DNA of 64,000 nt from Pedobacter sp. Its GTDB lineage: Bacteria > Bacteroidota > Bacteroidia > Sphingobacteriales > Sphingobacteriaceae. Each line of letters begins with the position of its first letter. Within the stretch, counting starts at the first letter, position 1. The translations under genes and the position numbers were made by a program. Positions 4,558 through 13,498 of this stretch are shown piece after piece. The stretch is taken from the NCBI RefSeq assembly GCF_041645105.1, contig NZ_JBAZQQ010000011.1:37884-101883 (forward strand), written 5' to 3'. Under the pieces are notes generated by a model. The model was not told the DNA's origin. It saw nothing but the letters and a program-made list of their open reading frames with translations, and ran no database searches.

Positions 4558-5937
4558 ATGGGAAAAAGCAAACTCTTCACGCTAGTATGTTTGGTGCTGA
4601 CCTCCTGTTCTACCGTAGTTCCGGAGCCAGTAGAAGCACAGCAAAAAAAGAGGCAGACCATTCCGGTCGACCTCAAAATACATAAAAATTTAAGCGACGA
4701 TCAGCTCCTGGACCTGGTACAAAAACAAACCTTCCGTTATTTCTGGGACTTTGCCCATCCTATAAGTGGCCTGGCAAGAGAAAGAAGCAATACAGCTTTT
4801 AATTACGGTGGCGAAGTAACAACGACTGGTGGTACTGGATTTGGCATTATGGCCACCATTGCCGCTACTGAGAGAAAATGGGTAAGCCGGGACAGTGCCT
4901 CCCGATTTCTACTTAAAATGGTTACCTTTTTAACCAAGGCTGATTCGTACCATGGTGTATTTCCGCACTGGCTAAATGGAGCCACAGGAAAAACGATTCC
5001 TTTTAGTCGCAAAGATGATGGCGCAGATTTGGTCGAGTCCTCTTTTTTATTTCAGGGACTGTTAACGGCCAAACAATATTTTAACGCTAATAATGCCGTA
5101 GAGCAAGAACTGCGAAACAAAATTACCTGGCTATGGGACGAAGTAGAATGGGATTGGTTCACCAAGGGTGGTGAAGAAGTACTGTACTGGCACTGGAGCC
5201 CCAACAACGGCTGGGCCATGAATTTTCCTTTACGGGGATACAACGAGTGTCTGATTACCTATGTACTCGCTGCATCGGCAAACAGATATCCGGTCTCTGC
5301 GGCAGTTTACCACAGGGGCTGGGCGCAGAGCAACTTTTTTATCAATGGCAAAGAGTTTTACGGACACAAACTCCCCTTGGGATTTGACAATGGAGGCCCA
5401 TTGTTTTTTTCTCACTATTCATTTCTAGGTTTAGATCCGAGAGGATTGAAAGACAAATATGCTGATTACTGGGAACAGAACAAAAACCACACTTTGGTAA
5501 ACAGAGCTTATTGTCTGGCCAATCCCAAAAAATACAAAGGTTATGGACCCAATTCCTGGGGCCTTACTGCTAGTGATAGCTGGCAAGGCTATGCGGCACA
5601 TTCGCCCAATAAAGATTTAGGAGTGATTACGCCTACTGCTGCATTATCAGCTTTCCCATACACCCCTGAATATTCTATGCAGGCACTACGGTATTTTTAT
5701 GAAGAAATGGGCTCAAAAATATGGACTGAATATGGTTTTACGGATGCATTTAGCGAACACCATAACTGGTACGCAAAATCACACCTGGCTATAGACCAAG
5801 GGCCAATCATTGTTATGATTGAGAACTACCGCAGTGGTTTACTATGGAAACTATTTATGAGCAGTCCGGAAATACAAAATGGCTTGAATAAGCTGGGTTT
5901 TAGCAGCCCGGCAATCCTTTCCACATCCAATAAATAA
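4558..5937 (+). CDS. GH144 endo-beta-1,2-glucanase (glucoamylase-like/DUF3131 family), lipoprotein
   Basis: Motifs GLARER, VTTGGTGFG, DLVESSFLFQGLL, GYNECLITYVL, LFFSHYSFLGLDP, WGLTAS, LAIDQGPIIVMIENYRSG. ATG 4558 is preferred over the track start at 4516, which lies inside the hairpin; it gives signal MGKSKLFTLVCLVLTSC. Confidence 0.88.
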   Translation: MGKSKLFTLVCLVLTSCSTVVPEPVEAQQKKRQTIPVDLKIHKNLSDDQLLDLVQKQTFRYFWDFAHPISGLARERSNTAFNYGGEVTTTGGTGFGIMATIAATERKWVSRDSASRFLLKMVTFLTKADSYHGVFPHWLNGATGKTIPFSRKDDGADLVESSFLFQGLLTAKQYFNANNAVEQELRNKITWLWDEVEWDWFTKGGEEVLYWHWSPNNGWAMNFPLRGYNECLITYVLAASANRYPVSAAVYHRGWAQSNFFINGKEFYGHKLPLGFDNGGPLFFSHYSFLGLDPRGLKDKYADYWEQNKNHTLVNRAYCLANPKKYKGYGPNSWGLTASDSWQGYAAHSPNKDLGVITPTAALSAFPYTPEYSMQALRYFYEEMGSKIWTEYGFTDAFSEHHNWYAKSHLAIDQGPIIVMIENYRSGLLWKLFMSSPEIQNGLNKLGFSSPAILSTSNK

Positions 5938-5943
5938 CACACA

Positions 5944-8247
5944 ATGAAATTCTTTTCTTTGCTATCACTATCCCTCCTGTTAGGTATTTATACCAGTTCA
6001 GGACAATATAAAAAGGTCGTTCTCCAAAATAATCAGAAAATGAACGTCTTTATCCAGTCGCTGATGTCAAAAATGACTTTAGACGAAAAGATAGGACAAT
6101 TGAATCTGCTTACCGGAGGTGAAGCAACCACGGGATCAGTAATCAGTACAGATGTTGAAACCAAGATTAAAAAAGGACAGGTGGGTGGCATTTTCAGCTT
6201 AACTACTCCTGCCCGGATTCGTAAGGCACAGGAAATTGCTGTTCAGCAAACCCGGCTTAAGATCCCCATCATATTTGGTCAGGATGTAATTCATGGCTAC
6301 AAAACCACCTTCCCTATTCCATTAGCACTGTCTTGTACCTGGGATATGGCTATGATTGAAAAAACAGCACGTATTGCTGCTACTGAAGCTACAGCAGATG
6401 GATTAAACTGGACTTTCTCTCCTATGGTTGATATTTCCAGAGATGCCCGATGGGGTCGTATTTCTGAAGGTTCAGGAGAAGATACATTCCTGGGTTCAGA
6501 AATAGCCAAAGCGATGGTAAAGGGATATCAGGGTGATGATCTTGCCAAATATAACACAATGATGGCTTGTGTAAAGCATTTTGCATTATATGGTGCTTCA
6601 GAAGCTGGTAGAGATTATAACACTACAGACATGAGTCTTGATCGAATGTACAATGAATATCTGCCGCCTTACAAAGCTGCCTTAGATGCAGGTGCAGGTA
6701 GTATCATGACTTCATTTAATGACATTAATGGTGTTCCTGCAACAGCCAATAAATGGTTAATGACTGATTTATTACGTAAAGAATGGGGTTTTAAAGGCTT
6801 TGTTGTAACCGATTACACTGCAGTAAATGAACTGATAGACCACGGCCTGGGTGATTTACAAGCTGTCTCTGCCTTGTCTTTAAATGCAGGTGTTGATATG
6901 GATATGGTTGGTGAAGGTTTCTTAACGACACTTAAAAAATCTGTAAAAGAAGGAAAAGTAAAAGTTGAGAAGATTGATCAGGCCTGCCGCTTGATATTAG
7001 AGGCTAAATATAAACTGGGCTTGTTCGAAGATCCTTTCCGTTATTGCAACGAGGAAAGGGCTAAAACAGAAATCTTAAAACCAGAGCATTTGGATTATGC
7101 ACGTAAGGTCGCCACAGAGTCTTTCGTTTTGTTAAAAAATGAAAACAACACGCTTCCGTTAAAGAAGAGTGGTACCATTGCATTAATTGGCCCATTGGCA
7201 AATACTGGAGCTAATATGCCGGGAACATGGAGTGTAAATAGTGATCTTGCGAATACAAAATCACTTCTACAGGGCATGCAGGCTGCTGCTGGCTCGGACA
7301 TTAAGATTTTACATAGCCTCGGTTCAAACTTACTTGCTGATGCCAAATACCAGGAACGTGCTACGATGTTTGGTCGTGATATTCCACGTGATAACAGACC
7401 TGAGGAAGTCGTTATTGCTGAAGCAGTAAAATTAGCTAAACAATCAGATGTAGTAGTTGCTGCATTAGGTGAAAGCTCGGAAATGAGTGGCGAAGCATCG
7501 AGCAGAACAGATATAGAAATTCCTGCTATTCAAAAACGTTTATTACAAGCTTTACTTAAAACAGGTAAACCAGTTGTATTGGTGCTATTCACTGGCAGAC
7601 CATTGGCATTGAAATGGGAAAGTGAAAACTTGCCAGCCATTTTAAATGTTTGGTTTGGAGGCACTGAAACAGCGAATGCTATTACTGATGTATTGTTTGG
7701 TCTGGTTAATCCGTCTGGTAAACTGACTACAACTTTCCCTCAGAATGTTGGTCAGCTTCCTTTATATTATGCGCATAAAAAGACTGGAAGACCGTTAGAA
7801 GAAGGCAAATGGTTTAGTAAATTCCGTTCTAATTACCTTGATGTAAGCAACGATCCCTTATATCCTTTTGGTTATGGCTTAAGCTATGCAACTTTTGCTT
7901 ACAGCAACTTAAAAGTAAGTAAAAACAGCTTCAAATCTGGAGAGTCTATTACAGCTAGTATAGAGATTAAAAACACAGGCATTGTTGAAGGTAAGGAAGT
8001 AGCACAATTGTACATTCAAGATTTAATAGGTAGTTCTACACGCCCAGTTAAAGAACTAAAAGGTTTTGAAAAGATCAGCTTAAAACCTGGTGAAAGTAAA
8101 ACCGTTAGTTTTAAAATTACTGAAGAGGACTTGAAATTCTATAATACCGCTTTGAAATTTGTTGCTGAGCCGGGCGATTTCAAAGTTTATATCGGAGGTA
8201 ATTCAAGAGATGTTATGGAGGCAAAATTTTCATTAGCCAACAAATAA
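5944..8247 (+). CDS. bglX: GH3 beta-glucosidase (BglX-like), periplasmic
   Basis: Signal peptide; MTLDEKIGQL, DVIHG, RWGRISEGSGED, KHF, nucleophile region VVTDY, C-terminal Fn3-like RPVKELKGFEKI. Confidence 0.95.
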   Translation: MKFFSLLSLSLLLGIYTSSGQYKKVVLQNNQKMNVFIQSLMSKMTLDEKIGQLNLLTGGEATTGSVISTDVETKIKKGQVGGIFSLTTPARIRKAQEIAVQQTRLKIPIIFGQDVIHGYKTTFPIPLALSCTWDMAMIEKTARIAATEATADGLNWTFSPMVDISRDARWGRISEGSGEDTFLGSEIAKAMVKGYQGDDLAKYNTMMACVKHFALYGASEAGRDYNTTDMSLDRMYNEYLPPYKAALDAGAGSIMTSFNDINGVPATANKWLMTDLLRKEWGFKGFVVTDYTAVNELIDHGLGDLQAVSALSLNAGVDMDMVGEGFLTTLKKSVKEGKVKVEKIDQACRLILEAKYKLGLFEDPFRYCNEERAKTEILKPEHLDYARKVATESFVLLKNENNTLPLKKSGTIALIGPLANTGANMPGTWSVNSDLANTKSLLQGMQAAAGSDIKILHSLGSNLLADAKYQERATMFGRDIPRDNRPEEVVIAEAVKLAKQSDVVVAALGESSEMSGEASSRTDIEIPAIQKRLLQALLKTGKPVVLVLFTGRPLALKWESENLPAILNVWFGGTETANAITDVLFGLVNPSGKLTTTFPQNVGQLPLYYAHKKTGRPLEEGKWFSKFRSNYLDVSNDPLYPFGYGLSYATFAYSNLKVSKNSFKSGESITASIEIKNTGIVEGKEVAQLYIQDLIGSSTRPVKELKGFEKISLKPGESKTVSFKITEEDLKFYNTALKFVAEPGDFKVYIGGNSRDVMEAKFSLANK

Positions 8248-8262
8248 AACATGATTGAATAT

Positions 8263-8298
8263 ATAGAAAGCCTTTCAAGGTCCTGAAAGGTTTTCTAT
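8263..8298. terminator. Bidirectional terminator between convergent GH3 and XRE genes
   Basis: atagaaagcctttca-aggtcc-tgaaaggttttctat inverted repeat, 15 bp stem with one wobble. Confidence 0.75.
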
Positions 8299-8745
8299 TT
8301 ATAGTAAATGACTTATTGAGTTTTTAAGGATCTCTATTTTCTCCTGTTCACAGACAAGTAGTCGCTCGTATAGCATCTTATTTTCTTCTAAAACCTGTAT
8401 TAGTTTATCTAATGGGTTAAAGTTACAGTCTTGATGAAGGTTACTATTAATTGTCTGAGGTTTCTGACTTATGCCTGAAGTATAGGAATTCAAATAATTA
8501 ACTACGGTATCTTCGTCGAAGTTTTTAATAGCATCCTCAGAAACATTCAAGGCAATTGCAACTCTGACTAACACTTCCGGCTCAATTTCTTCCCTGGTTT
8601 CCAATATAGAGATTCGCTTCTGGTGCCAATCCTCCCCCAATTGTATAGCAAGTGCTTCTTGTTTCATCCCGAGCATTTCTCGAAAGCGTTTTACATTTCG
8701 CCCCTGATGTATATTATTGAGAAGTCTTGTTCTTTCCTCAGCCAT
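8299..8745 (-). CDS. XRE-family HTH transcriptional regulator, Bacteroidota type with C-terminal coiled coil
   Basis: HQGRNVKRFREMLGMKQEALAIQLG...QKRISILE HTH; C-terminal FNPLDKL...EENKMLYERLL. Confidence 0.9.
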   Translation of the reverse strand: MAEERTRLLNNIHQGRNVKRFREMLGMKQEALAIQLGEDWHQKRISILETREEIEPEVLVRVAIALNVSEDAIKNFDEDTVVNYLNSYTSGISQKPQTINSNLHQDCNFNPLDKLIQVLEENKMLYERLLVCEQEKIEILKNSISHLL

Positions 8746-9052
8746 ATTTCATTGATTAAATTATCTGACAAACGTAATAAGACTAATAATTTATAGTGAC
8801 TACTAATTAAAACTTTGAGGAAAACACCAAGGAATTTAAAAAAGCTTTTATAAAATATGGTTTGTTCTTACTCATATGCACACTTTCAAAACATTATTCT
8901 GCAGTGATTACATCATGACTGATCTAATAAGCTAAAGGCACTTTAAAGGGCTAAAATAGACCGTTCGTATTCTACGATAGATCTTTTCTGAATTGGTTAG
9001 AAATTTAAGGTTATTGAATTTTGATTCATTAATTATCTCCCAATTTACAATT

Positions 9053-9817
9053 ATGAATAAACCAGAAGATGTTACCATTACCTACATTCCACATAATTTT
9101 AATGTCGCGTGTACCATATTCAATTTATCCATTCAGCGTTTTCTTCAGCAATTTATTGATCATGTTTCATTTTATGATATGATCTTTCCTACTGAAGTTG
9201 ATGCTTATGAACTTGCGACCCGTACACTTTCTAAGTATTCATATGACAAGAAAGAAACTCCTGATGATCAGAAAAATTATGGTATGATTGCAACTACAGA
9301 TCTGGAAGGTTCTGTTCAAGCAGTTAAGGGCATGCACATGATCTCTCTACAAACGGGGTTAAATAACAAACAAAGAAGAGAAAAAGCAGAAAAACTGGTT
9401 CAAAAACTTTTCTTTCATATTGGAAAAGATAAAGTTAAATCTAAAACCCTATATCTGGGAAAGGACCAGACACTGACCTTAAGTCCCGACTTCTGTTTGA
9501 TTTGTGAAATCCAACAGATCGGTCCAGTTGAACATCTTACCAATTTAATGGAGAACATATCCCTTGCTGATATGGAGGCTCGTACCAGCTTAGGTATGTC
9601 ACTTGAGAATCCTGCGATGGGCTTTTACATGAAAGGTCATAAAATATATAATGATCTCCGTAGTAATGAAGCAGTACATCCATTAACATTCAATTACATA
9701 GATGATCTGCAAGAATTGAGATTGCATTTATTCATTTATAGATCCTTAAAATTAAGAGTACAAAAACATCAGGAACTACTAGACAAATACTTTAACCTTA
9801 TAACCAATAAATTATGA
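9053..9817 (+). CDS. Hypothetical protein with two tandem copies of an uncharacterised ~125 aa unit
   Basis: Long ORF. ATG 9053 follows an A/T-rich leader and is preferred over the track start at 8993. Internal repeat PHNFNVACTIF...VSF / SPDFCLICEIQ...ISL. Confidence 0.8.
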   Translation: MNKPEDVTITYIPHNFNVACTIFNLSIQRFLQQFIDHVSFYDMIFPTEVDAYELATRTLSKYSYDKKETPDDQKNYGMIATTDLEGSVQAVKGMHMISLQTGLNNKQRREKAEKLVQKLFFHIGKDKVKSKTLYLGKDQTLTLSPDFCLICEIQQIGPVEHLTNLMENISLADMEARTSLGMSLENPAMGFYMKGHKIYNDLRSNEAVHPLTFNYIDDLQELRLHLFIYRSLKLRVQKHQELLDKYFNLITNKL

Positions 9818-10188
9818 ACCTAACAATTACCATTGACATCCCTGAAGACTTTAAACAATTATGCGATATTTTTGATTTTGATCCTGAAGATATCTTTCAG
9901 GCATTTGCAAATAAGATATCCTTTCCGGTTTTTTATAGTCAGCCAAATAGTCGGCATCGCTGGGCAAATTTCTTCTTTTTAGACTATTTAGTTGATACCT
10001 GTCGTAATGATACAACAAAATGGGAAATACATAAAGCCTTTATGGATAAAATGGTCCACTCCATTTCCAAGAGTGATGACAAGAGTGAAGAAGCAAATAG
10101 GACAGTGATGAAGGAATGGCATCAATTCATTTTGAATAAACGTACAGAAGATTTAATCAACAAGCTTATAGATGAACGTAAAAATTAA
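9814..10188 (+). CDS. Hypothetical protein with a single copy of the same unit (paralogue of the upstream gene)
   Basis: ATGA overlap with the upstream stop; PEDFKQLCDIFDFDPEDIFQAFANKISF aligns ungapped to both repeats of the upstream protein. Confidence 0.8.
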   Translation: MNLTITIDIPEDFKQLCDIFDFDPEDIFQAFANKISFPVFYSQPNSRHRWANFFFLDYLVDTCRNDTTKWEIHKAFMDKMVHSISKSDDKSEEANRTVMKEWHQFILNKRTEDLINKLIDERKN

Positions 10189-10241
10189 TAATAAACCCAC
10201 ATAATTTTCATTTATACTTCATAAATCAATAATTTTGCTAC

Positions 10242-11027
10242 ATGAAAACGTTCAATCTCACCTTCTCGTTGTTATTGCTTTTTGCTTTATACAGTAATGC
10301 CCAGGATTTTAATAAATATGAAAAAGGGAGCTTTCTGAAAGGAAAAGATAATATCGACTATAGGGTATTGTTTCCAGAGAACTTTGATGCAACAAAAAAA
10401 TATCCTATCCTCTTTTTCCTCCATGGCAGTGGTGAAAAGGGGAATGACAATCAATCACAATTGACCCACGGGGCAAAGCTGTTCTTAAGGGAAGATATAA
10501 GGAAGAATTTTCCTGCAATTGTAGTATTTCCGCAGTGTAGTCCAGATAGCTACTGGTCAAATGTAAATATTGTACCTGACGGCAAAGGTAAAAGAGAATT
10601 TATTTTTCAGGAAAAAGGCGAACCTAGCAAAGCCATGAATGCTTTGCTAGGTTTAGTAGATAGTTTTTTACAAAAAACTTATGTAGATACACAACGTGTT
10701 TATGTGGCAGGCTTATCGATGGGTGGAATGGGTACTTATGAATTGTTAAGACGCAAACCCAGGACATTTGCAGCAGCTTTTTCAATCTGTGGAGGTGATA
10801 ATGTAGCCAACGTACAGAAGTATAAGAACACCCCCTTATGGATATTCCATGGTGAAAAAGATGACGTAGTTCCGGTTGTTTTTTCGACAAGGATTGCAGA
10901 TCAATTAAAAGTACTTGGCAAACCTGTTAAATTAACATTATATCCAGAAGCCAACCACAACAGTTGGGACGCTACCTTTGCAGAACCGGAGTTATTACCT
11001 TGGTTATTTTCCAACAAAAAGAAATAA
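10242..11027 (+). CDS. Secreted alpha/beta-hydrolase (esterase / predicted peptidase family)
   Basis: Signal peptide; FLHGSGE, nucleophile elbow GLSMGG, HGEKDDVV, HNSW catalytic His. Confidence 0.88.
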   Translation: MKTFNLTFSLLLLFALYSNAQDFNKYEKGSFLKGKDNIDYRVLFPENFDATKKYPILFFLHGSGEKGNDNQSQLTHGAKLFLREDIRKNFPAIVVFPQCSPDSYWSNVNIVPDGKGKREFIFQEKGEPSKAMNALLGLVDSFLQKTYVDTQRVYVAGLSMGGMGTYELLRRKPRTFAAAFSICGGDNVANVQKYKNTPLWIFHGEKDDVVPVVFSTRIADQLKVLGKPVKLTLYPEANHNSWDATFAEPELLPWLFSNKKK

Positions 11028-11182: not shown

Positions 11183-13498
11183 ATGCTATTTATTGTACTG
11201 TCAGGAATAATCACTTCATGTCTTTTAGTCCCATTTGGAAAATTTTTCAAATCCAAATGGAGTGCTGCCTTTTCTATTTTGCCGATCCTATTATTCAGCT
11301 ACTTCTGCAGTTTCATTCCTTCTGTAATGGAAAGCAAAGTATGGTTTGAATCCTATAAATGGGTACCCTCTTTAGATATCAATTTTGATTTCAGACTGGA
11401 TGGGCTTTCGCTACTATTTAGTTTATTAATTACTGGTATAGGATCCTTTATTTTTATATATGCTAGCTCATATCTTAAAGGACATCAATACCTTGATCGC
11501 TTCTATGGCTACTTATGCTTGTTCATGTCGGCCATGCTGGGTGTAGTATTATCAGACAATATCCTTTTGTTATTTGTATTCTGGGAACTCACCAGTATTA
11601 GTTCTTTCTTTCTTATTGGCTTTAATAATGACAGCAACGAATCCAGAAAAAGTGCACTAACAGCACTTGGTGTAACTGGACTTGGAGGCTTTTTTCTCCT
11701 TGCTGGCTTAATTTTGCTGAGCCAGATAGCTGGAACTTACTCAATACAACAACTAATCTTACAAGCCGACCAAATCAGAGGACATAATTTATATCCTCTT
11801 GTATTGGGATTGATTTTTATTGCTGCTTTTACTAAATCGGCACAGTTCCCATTCCATTTTTGGTTACCTGGTGCGATGAAAGCTCCAACTCCTGTATCTG
11901 CTTACCTACATTCTGCAACAATGGTTAAAGCAGGAATTTTTCTGCTGGCCCGTTTTACACCAATTCTGGGAGGGACACCAGAATGGTCATATACCTTAAT
12001 GATTGTTGGTGGTATTACTATGCTTTATGCTGCGATACATTCCTTGTTCAGAACAGATTTGAAAGGTGTACTTGCCTATTCCACTATATCAGCACTTGGA
12101 ATACTCACTTTTTTAATTGGTCTTGGAACTGAAGCTGCTCTTATTGCCGCAGCGACTTTTATAATTGTCCATGCCTTATATAAAGCTGCTCTATTTTTAA
12201 TCACTGGCATCATTGATCATGAAACAGGCACCAGAGACCTGACCAAGCTATCGGGGCTCCGGAGTGTATTATTTCCTGTTTTTATTGCAGGATTACTGGC
12301 TGCACTTTCCAGTGCAGGTCTCCCACTCTCATTTGGGTTTATCGGAAAAGATCTTATTTATGAAGCGACATTGCATGCTGATCAAAAAATCGCAATATTT
12401 CTCACTATTGCAGCAGTCCTTACCAATGTTTGCCTGGTTGCCGCAGGTTTTCTTGCGGGGATAAAGCCTTTCACTGGCAAATTGCCCCACCGTTTTGAAA
12501 AGATTCATTTGCCTTATAAGTCAATGTGGATTCCACCCCTGGCGCTTGCCATTCTTGGCTTTGTATTTGGCTGTTTCCCTGGAATAATAGGAGATTATAT
12601 CATCTCCCCAACTGTACATGCTGTAGCCGGAACTGCAGTTGATTTTCATTTGAAAATATGGCATGGCTTTAACACCGTACTTATTTTAAGTCTGGTAACA
12701 CTTGCAGCTGGGACAGGGCTCTATTACGTAAATACACCTGACCATAAAAAAATGGTATTTGTAAGGCGTTTTAACTGGATTTCACCTCATAACATTTTTA
12801 ATAAATTGTCTGACGGTTTTGTTTCATTTTCCACGTGGTATTCGGCTACAATGCACAATGGCTTCCTAAGGTCTTATCTTCTTAAAATCATCATATTTGC
12901 TGAGGCTTTACTCTTGTATGAATTAATTATTGGAGGACCAATCTATATTGATTACAGTAAGCTATCAGAAATTAGTGTCTATGAAGCTGTAAATGTATTT
13001 ATCCTGATGGCTGCTGTAGTGCTTACTCTTCGTACTTCGTCAAGACTCACAGCAGTTGTTGGCACTAGTGTAATCGGATATGCCATTTGTTTAATGTTTG
13101 TTTTTTACAGTGCACCTGACCTGGCCATAACACAATTTACAATAGATACATTAACGGTAGTCCTGTTTGTATTTGTCTTATTTAATTTACCGCCATTCCT
13201 TAATTTCTCAACCAACAATTCAAGAACAATCACCAGAGATGCATTTGTAGCCATTACTTTTGGAGCAATCTTATCAGTTATTGCTATCAAAGTGTTGCAG
13301 GTACCAACTGTTATAGAAACCAGCGAGTTTTACGGAAAATATGCCTATACACTTGCAAAGGGAAAGAATGTAGTTAATGTTATTCTTGTAGACTTCAGGG
13401 GATTTGATACCATGTTTGAAATTGTAGTGTTAAGTATCGCTGCTTTAGGTGTATATAGTTTACTAAAATTAAGGTTAAAATCTTCAGAAAGGGAATAA
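11183..13498 (+). CDS. mrpA: Mrp Na+/H+ antiporter subunit A
   Basis: NuoL-like: [49 protein letters not shown]; C-terminal [15 protein letters not shown]. Confidence 0.97.

Follow-up and report, generated by a model that had tools for sequence, protein, structure and literature searches.

An XRE-linked pair of coupled genes built from three copies of one undescribed unit in Pedobacter: possibly a reduced HEPN-associated accessory module

Proteins with a HEPN domain hold a central place in toxin-antitoxin, abortive-infection and CRISPR-associated systems, and we know of only few proteins that neutralise them (MNT and RnlB-like proteins). The subject of this study is a cassette of three genes, termed XRE-A-B, within a stretch of 64,000 nucleotides from Pedobacter sp. 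(contig NZ_JBAZQQ010000011.1 of assembly GCF_041645105.1; hereafter “the window”), in which a regulator gene of the XRE family diverges from two coupled genes, A and B. The window derives from a groundwater metagenome, and synteny identifies it as Pedobacter; a search for RNA-seq runs yielded DNA or metagenome runs only. Several described systems bear comparison with it, first among them the HEPN-MNT pairs (HepT/MntA, type VII) and FhepTA (PMC13000451; PMC3710099), and MNT-HEPN toxin-antitoxin proteins fused in a single chain provide a recent precedent (PMC13000451). The unit from which A and B are built belongs to an undescribed family, yet the system is of a known kind, namely the small XRE-linked, HEPN-associated accessory modules.

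As in the HEPN-MNT systems, the proteins encoded by relatives of the cassette possess a PF05168 HEPN domain, preceded by an N-terminal domain that in one member carries an MNT-like pattern; their modules are likewise small, coupled and patchily distributed, and it is the HEPN gene that goes first while its partners stay. Unlike in these systems, a HEPN gene is absent from the window itself, a new helical unit takes the place of MNT as the partner, the regulator is a divergent XRE, and the HEPN protein of the relatives is a tandem-duplicated pseudo-dimer; in addition, the RNase motif is inconsistently conserved among the HEPN proteins of the relatives. A second point of comparison is offered by XRE-family modules (HigA, MqsA or HipB-type and XRE-linked accessory cassettes), in which a Cro/C1 helix-turn-helix (HTH) gene also adjoins small accessory genes and which resemble the present cassette in its gain or loss as a block. 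In contrast to these, the XRE gene described here is divergent instead of co-operonic, and the window contains no member of a known toxin family. Finally, the partner proteins of the relatives share the two-domain order of kanamycin nucleotidyltransferase, a dimeric protein that combines a nucleotidyltransferase domain with a HEPN-like helical domain (motif inspection and PMC3710099). Their fused form of 580 amino acids (aa) mimics the dimer, whereas the nucleotidyltransferase catalytic motif is degenerate in the Pedobacter proteins and an antibiotic-resistance context is absent. The cassette and its immediate surroundings comprise the following features:

8299-8745, minus strand: XRE gene, encoding an XRE/Cro-C1-type HTH regulator of 148 aa with a coiled-coil-like C-terminal tail
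8746-9052, no strand: divergent control region between XRE and A, 307 bp, 27% guanine plus cytosine (GC)
9053-9817, plus strand: gene A, 254 aa, two homologous units of ~125 aa (about aa 1-128 and 129-254)
9814-10188, plus strand: gene B, 124 aa, acidic (isoelectric point (pI) 5.3), one unit with full-length homology to either half of A
8271-8290, no strand: terminator-like hairpin between the convergent GH3 (stop at 8247) and XRE (stop at 8299) genes, serving the XRE side
8240-10153, no strand: block that is present or absent as a whole, GC content 33.5% versus 37.5-39.1% in the two flanking genes

An earlier, sequence-only reading of this DNA had given these gene coordinates, the minus-strand position of XRE and a spacer of about this length and AT-richness, all of which are correct, and had described a 28-residue signature that occurs three times. 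The signature segments are located at A 13-40, A 144-171 and B 10-37, each with the residues F, C, I and S. The same reading regarded A as two units and B as one, and this view gained firm support from profile-profile comparisons by hhalign of 44 A-family and 10 B-family sequences. The N-terminal half of A aligned with the C-terminal half over 113 columns (probability 97%, E 4e-11, score 63), and B aligned with the N-terminal half over 104 columns (99%, E 6.5e-18, score 94) and with the C-terminal half over 109 columns (98%, E 3.6e-13, score 78). In 80 column-shuffled controls, by comparison, mean scores were 10-12 and the maximum stayed below 20. With the close homologues alone, the N-terminal half of A still matched B (E 1.4e-7), and its match to the C-terminal half was not significant (E 0.2). 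A hidden Markov model (HMM) of the A family matches every B protein with 30-51 bits over B residues 4-110. Judged from their sequences, A and B are composed of three homologous units of ~120 aa, with the homology spanning whole units and extending beyond the 28-residue motif; A carries the unit as a tandem duplication and B carries it once. The two genes are translationally coupled, as the stop codon of A and the start codon of B overlap in ATGA (9814-9817).

An exhaustive profile search yielded 81 clusters of A relatives, nearly all of ~250 aa, and a later homologue search from the 44-sequence alignment gained a single further protein. Two very long proteins, P0055 (4429 aa) and P0078 (1744 aa), match A at about residues 162-204 in 11 and 6 separate stretches, respectively, which could represent a repeated helical motif or a compositional artefact.

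The statement that the pair has no described function holds across all collections that were searched. Neither A nor B matched anything in scans of Pfam, NCBIfam, PADLOC and PHROGs, and PDB sequence-profile searches with both families were empty. Comparison of 44 family members with Pfam at E <= 10 brought up no recurrent family and no ribbon-helix-helix (RHH) family, a tblastn search of A against plasmid and phage collections returned no match, and PADLOC-DB 2.0 contained none for XRE, A, B or three of the 580-aa HEPN proteins. AlphaFold2 modelling of A (pLDDT 74, pTM 0.73) predicts for each unit a strand, a helix, a turn and a second helix, followed by 3-4 further helices; the opening elements are E7-9, H14-22 and H27-37 in unit 1 and E139-142, H145-154 and H158-167 in unit 2. 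Foldseek comparison of the A model with the PDB and viral structures and of the B model with the PDB yielded nothing below E 0.2; against the PDB the best values were E 0.9-1.1 with no RHH entries, in a method that is weak on 45-residue domains.

The unit family adjoins HEPN proteins in several classes of Bacteroidota. A HEPN gene lies next to the partner gene in L004, L006, L008 and 12 further loci. In L006 and L008 the 580-aa protein, hereafter HEPN580, matches PF05168 at E 1e-10 to 2e-11, while the L004 protein reaches E 1.9e-4 and 22.0 bits, exactly on the 22-bit cutoff. HEPN580 (L004:4240-5982; L006:4252-5997) is a tandem duplication of a ~290-aa module consisting of a Rossmann-like domain and a C-terminal PF05168 HEPN domain (probability 95%, E 2.5e-8), and this internal duplication parallels that in A. 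A genome scan with HEPN580 retrieved 79 loci across Bacteroidota, and a unit-like gene was found beside HEPN in 14 of them compared with none of 79 controls (Fisher 6.5e-5); after removal of the two loci from which the query was derived, the count was 12/77 (Fisher 1.3e-4). Niabella, Flavisolibacter, Chitinophaga and Chryseolinea carry genes for one-unit proteins (137-168 aa) beside those for single HEPN proteins of ~290-310 aa. The A profile matches these single-unit proteins at 4e-6 to 5e-3, and a profile built from the single-unit proteins alone matches Pedobacter A at 3.7e-6. The states of duplication agree on both sides, with the two-unit A accompanying the duplicated HEPN580 and the single-unit proteins accompanying single HEPN proteins.

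Two further features of the distant loci were recorded. A conserved ~320-aa protein is encoded between the unit-like and HEPN genes of an uncultured Sphingobacteriales metagenome-assembled genome (MAG; L155:3994-4944) and a Flavisolibacter MAG (L178:3652-4635), and its L155 copy has no Pfam or NCBIfam match. The N-terminal domain of the HEPN partner at L171:4692-5600 displays the MNT-like pattern G-T...D-x-D; its similarity to the CRISPR-associated protein TM1812 (E 4e-4) is far below the cutoff and was not relied on.

Linkage of A to B and of both to XRE genes had been anticipated, and both associations were found. Wherever B occurs, A lies next to it, that is, in the eight loci L001-L008, which hold 11 close homologues, in 8 further loci from the genome scan and in the window. 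Cro/C1-type regulators recur in at least four locus layouts and in distant Bacteroidota. The layouts are:

(i) XRE / A / B: this window
(ii) XRE / 580-aa HEPN protein / A / B: L004/L010, and L006 and L008 without a visible XRE
(iii) small HTH_26 gene / 220-aa protein / HEPN gene in stages of decay / A / B: L011-L016
(iv) two or three A-like genes in an array, accompanied by a small gene of weak HTH character, HEPN absent: L017-L023

The MAG Pedobacter hiemivivus T2.bin.227 contains both XRE-A-B (L009) and XRE-HEPN580-A-B (L010), with two XRE proteins of one family, and sequence comparison likewise assigns the XRE of the window and the 176-aa XRE upstream of HEPN580-A-B in L004 to one family. 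In layout iii the HEPN gene is lost step by step (418 aa in L016, 239 aa in L015 and absent from L011-14) while A-B stays intact, which by analogy has the look of toxin-antitoxin decay. Among the distant loci, 8 of 10 small genes adjoining the module encode a Cro/C1 HTH; nine of the ten are divergent and one is co-directional (L132). An HMM of the module XREs matches 53 of 796 genes in HEPN loci versus 1 of 792 control genes, a contrast that is somewhat inflated because the model was trained on module XREs. The 220-aa protein of layout iii is conserved in the P. gandavensis group (L011:7266-7928 and orthologues in L012-L016), where its gene is located between the HTH gene and HEPN-A-B; it has no family match, and its sequence hints at an HTH-like segment.

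Information on the gain and loss of the cassette came from a survey of 80 loci with an orthologous esterase gene, in most of which, as far as Pedobacter is concerned, GH3 and esterase are directly adjacent. Within the genome collection, XRE-A-B was found at this junction only in L026 (the same place as L009), and in addition on the three metagenome contigs L001-L003. The closest relative, Pedobacter sp. ASV1-7 (L025), encodes flanking proteins 92-97% identical to those of the window and is without 8240-10153. It carries a scar at 5900-5960, where ~35 nt resembling the 3' end of B are fused to the end of GH3 and supply its last codons. Because this B-like remainder persists at its GH3 end, L025 is considered a deletion derivative. 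XRE-A-B is gained or lost as one block. Across Pedobacter, the GH3|esterase junction (8247-8299 and 10188-10242) is a variable spot that is vacant in most species; in other loci it holds a PD-(D/E)XK transposase, a polyvalent-protein kinase, an AraC regulator, a symporter or a sulfatase (L027, L030, L044, L103, L104).

The cassette proteins are 60-71% identical between orthologues versus 80-89% for the flanking proteins, and amino-acid change in A and B is 2-4 times faster than in the flanking genes. Their ratio of nonsynonymous to synonymous substitution (dN/dS), with dS saturated, is 0.10-0.20 in cassettes that have no HEPN gene, indicating purifying selection. Three species, 30-40% apart in protein sequence, all retain intact reading frames of A and B, and the ATGA overlap of the window is replaced by gaps of 6 and 18 nt in the orthologues L001 and L009.

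The regulator itself is a borderline member of HTH_3 (E 1.2e-4, 22.5 bits, cutoff 23 bits); its orthologues score 24.1 and 23.4 bits, and it matches a PHROG transcriptional repressor at E 3.9e-5. An alignment of three orthologous spacers revealed two conserved blocks. The first, at 8765-8786, contains TACGTTTG on the minus strand (8776-8769), a box that was located by motif scan 23 nt ahead of the XRE start. The Bacteroidetes -7 promoter consensus is TAnnTTTG, and TACGTTTG matches it. The second block spans 8988-9023 and ends in GAATTTTG, 30 nt ahead of the A start. Between the spacer of the window and those of the other layouts, a search for common operator DNA brought up only short chance words. 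The sequence-only reading had let the A-B pair end at a terminator of its own, which is not the case: the sole terminator-like hairpin of the locus is the one at 8271-8290, between the GH3 and XRE stops, and no such structure follows B. The esterase gene starts 53 nt past the end of B and has its own TAATTTTG box. Further out, a SusD-like gene and glycoside hydrolases are located upstream of the cassette and a Mrp-type antiporter operon begins at 11183; neither tRNA genes nor any Rfam family at gathering score were detected in the window.

These findings can be accommodated, tentatively and with slightly less than even confidence, by a model in which XRE-A-B is the reduced form of a Bacteroidota accessory module whose A and B proteins were ancestrally HEPN-binding partners, orphaned here yet maintained. 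The fuller form would consist of a divergent XRE, a HEPN protein with an N-terminal Rossmann-like (MNT-like) domain and at least one helical unit of ~120 aa. In this scenario, A would fold as an intramolecular pseudo-dimer and form a protein complex with B, and the ancestral task of both would have been to bind the dimeric HEPN protein as antitoxin-like, immunity-like or regulatory partners. XRE would repress divergent promoters in the 307-bp spacer. The HEPN gene would have been lost from this window, and the orphan A-B pair may still matter, its target perhaps being a HEPN paralogue encoded at another place in the genome or incoming HEPN proteins. Since the unit adjoins HEPN proteins in relatives, XRE-A-B is probably a stripped-down conflict or regulatory module and not a DNA-binding complex.

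Several observations weigh against this model. No HEPN gene lies within the 64-kb window, and a unit gene accompanies only 14 of the 79 HEPN loci. In Parapedobacter and Olivibacter, XRE and HEPN580 are unaccompanied by A/B, and A-like genes occur in arrays of two or three without HEPN; therefore, neither partner strictly needs the other. The RNase motif Rx4-6H appears as R-x4-H in L006 and L008 and as K-x4-H in L004 and L016, with the His invariant, and its Arg is missing from the Niabella-type HEPN proteins. A HEPN domain that is fused to an MNT-like domain frequently lacks catalytic activity (PMC3710099), and together with the inconsistent retention of the motif this makes the toxin label for the HEPN partner uncertain. 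Finally, the AlphaFold2 model of the B monomer is poor (pLDDT 64).

An alternative that appears somewhat unlikely is that A and B function independently of HEPN, either as orphan immunity-like or anti-addiction arrays or in another XRE-controlled stress or accessory role, so that their adjacency to HEPN genes would reflect shared variable spots. Such a role would account for the HEPN-free arrays of layout iv, in which 2-3 divergent A paralogues accompany the small HTH-like gene, and for the purifying selection on XRE-A-B where HEPN is absent. The proteins are acidic, helical and fast-evolving, and the GH3|esterase junction is known to receive other accessory cargo in other species. Shared insertion spots alone, however, sit poorly with the overlaps or short gaps between unit and HEPN genes, which are observed in both gene orders, with the way in which the single or double state of the unit protein tracks that of the HEPN protein, and with the enrichment of HEPN adjacency over controls.

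The sequence-only reading itself favoured RHH proteins (Arc/MetJ/CopG and RelB/ParD-type antitoxins): each unit would open with a ribbon-helix-helix, A would be a single-chain pseudo-dimer and B a dimer or its partner, and the proteins would bind DNA, either as regulators or in the manner of RHH-type antitoxins, the conserved Cys serving as their redox or metal switch. This is a distinctly unlikely explanation of the cassette. The layout proposed for it stands in part, as the model of A predicts strand, helix and helix at the start of both units, and a sheet shared between E7-9 and the strand of unit 2 is suggested because the only pairing strands lie in 132-142; the model of the B monomer contains the two helices and no strand. 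A precedent for two units in one chain exists in the single-chain RHH pseudo-dimer of F-plasmid TraY (bioRxiv 10.1101/2024.12.19.629322). The distant single-unit relatives are basic (pI 9.4-9.9 in 7 of 8, and 8.26 in Chryseolinea, L171) and carry Lys/Arg-rich tails just before the strand, as RHH antitoxins do, and they resemble those RHH antitoxins that possess a C-terminal partner-binding part; for these relatives an RHH-antitoxin-like role is plausible. The assignment to RHH itself gained no support, in that none of the 44 family members matched an RHH family and PDB sequence and fold searches gave no match. The strand residues are poorly conserved in the 44-sequence A-family alignment, the unit is with ~120 aa and its 3-4 extra helices unlike RHH proteins, and the motif suits the spacing of an HTH equally well. 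Nor was the postulated DNA binding supported: the three motif segments carry net charges of -3, -5 and -6, the pI is 6.8 for A and 5.3 for B (medians 6.0 for A-type and 5.0 for B-type proteins), and the module already has a dedicated DNA-binding protein in XRE. Direct DNA binding by the acidic A and B of the window is unlikely.

The Cys in helix 1 is conserved in all types of unit (40/44 in unit 1, 39/44 in unit 2, 9/10 in B and 8/8 in the distant single-unit proteins), and the Ser that follows helix 2 shows similar conservation across the family. A role of this Cys as a redox or metal site is unsupported, with one Cys per unit, no Cys/His cluster and a position at a helix crossing where small residues are found. 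A structural role explains its conservation equally well because both RHH and HTH motifs call for a small residue where two helices cross.

It is very improbable that the A/B pair is a functionless, decaying remnant left after loss of the HEPN gene, for although the cassette is dispensable, was deleted in the nearest relative, and has a lower GC content and faster divergence than the flanking genes, its frames are intact in the three species, its dN/dS values are low, the A/B coupling is conserved in its varied spacing and so are sequence blocks upstream.

Returning to the model of A and B as HEPN-binding partners, a broader and rather doubtful proposition would be that the A/B unit represents a new, Bacteroidota-specific superfamily of partners (antitoxin, immunity protein or adaptor) for MNT-like-HEPN proteins, which it would bind in a domain-by-domain fashion: single units would bind single HEPN proteins, and the duplicated A would bind the duplicated HEPN580 jointly with B. 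The unit, its HEPN protein and XRE would then make up a new conflict system of three components, and XRE-A-B cassettes left as orphans would be anti-addiction or immunity modules. If true, a new HEPN partner domain would mean that HEPN proteins can be controlled in one more way, and it would be distinctive in being confined to Bacteroidota, duplicated in step with its HEPN partner and able to survive in orphan cassettes. The family is unannotated, comprises about 80 clusters at 50% identity and could become a profile for genome annotation, and the cassette would offer a handle on the turnover of accessory genes in soil and groundwater Pedobacter.

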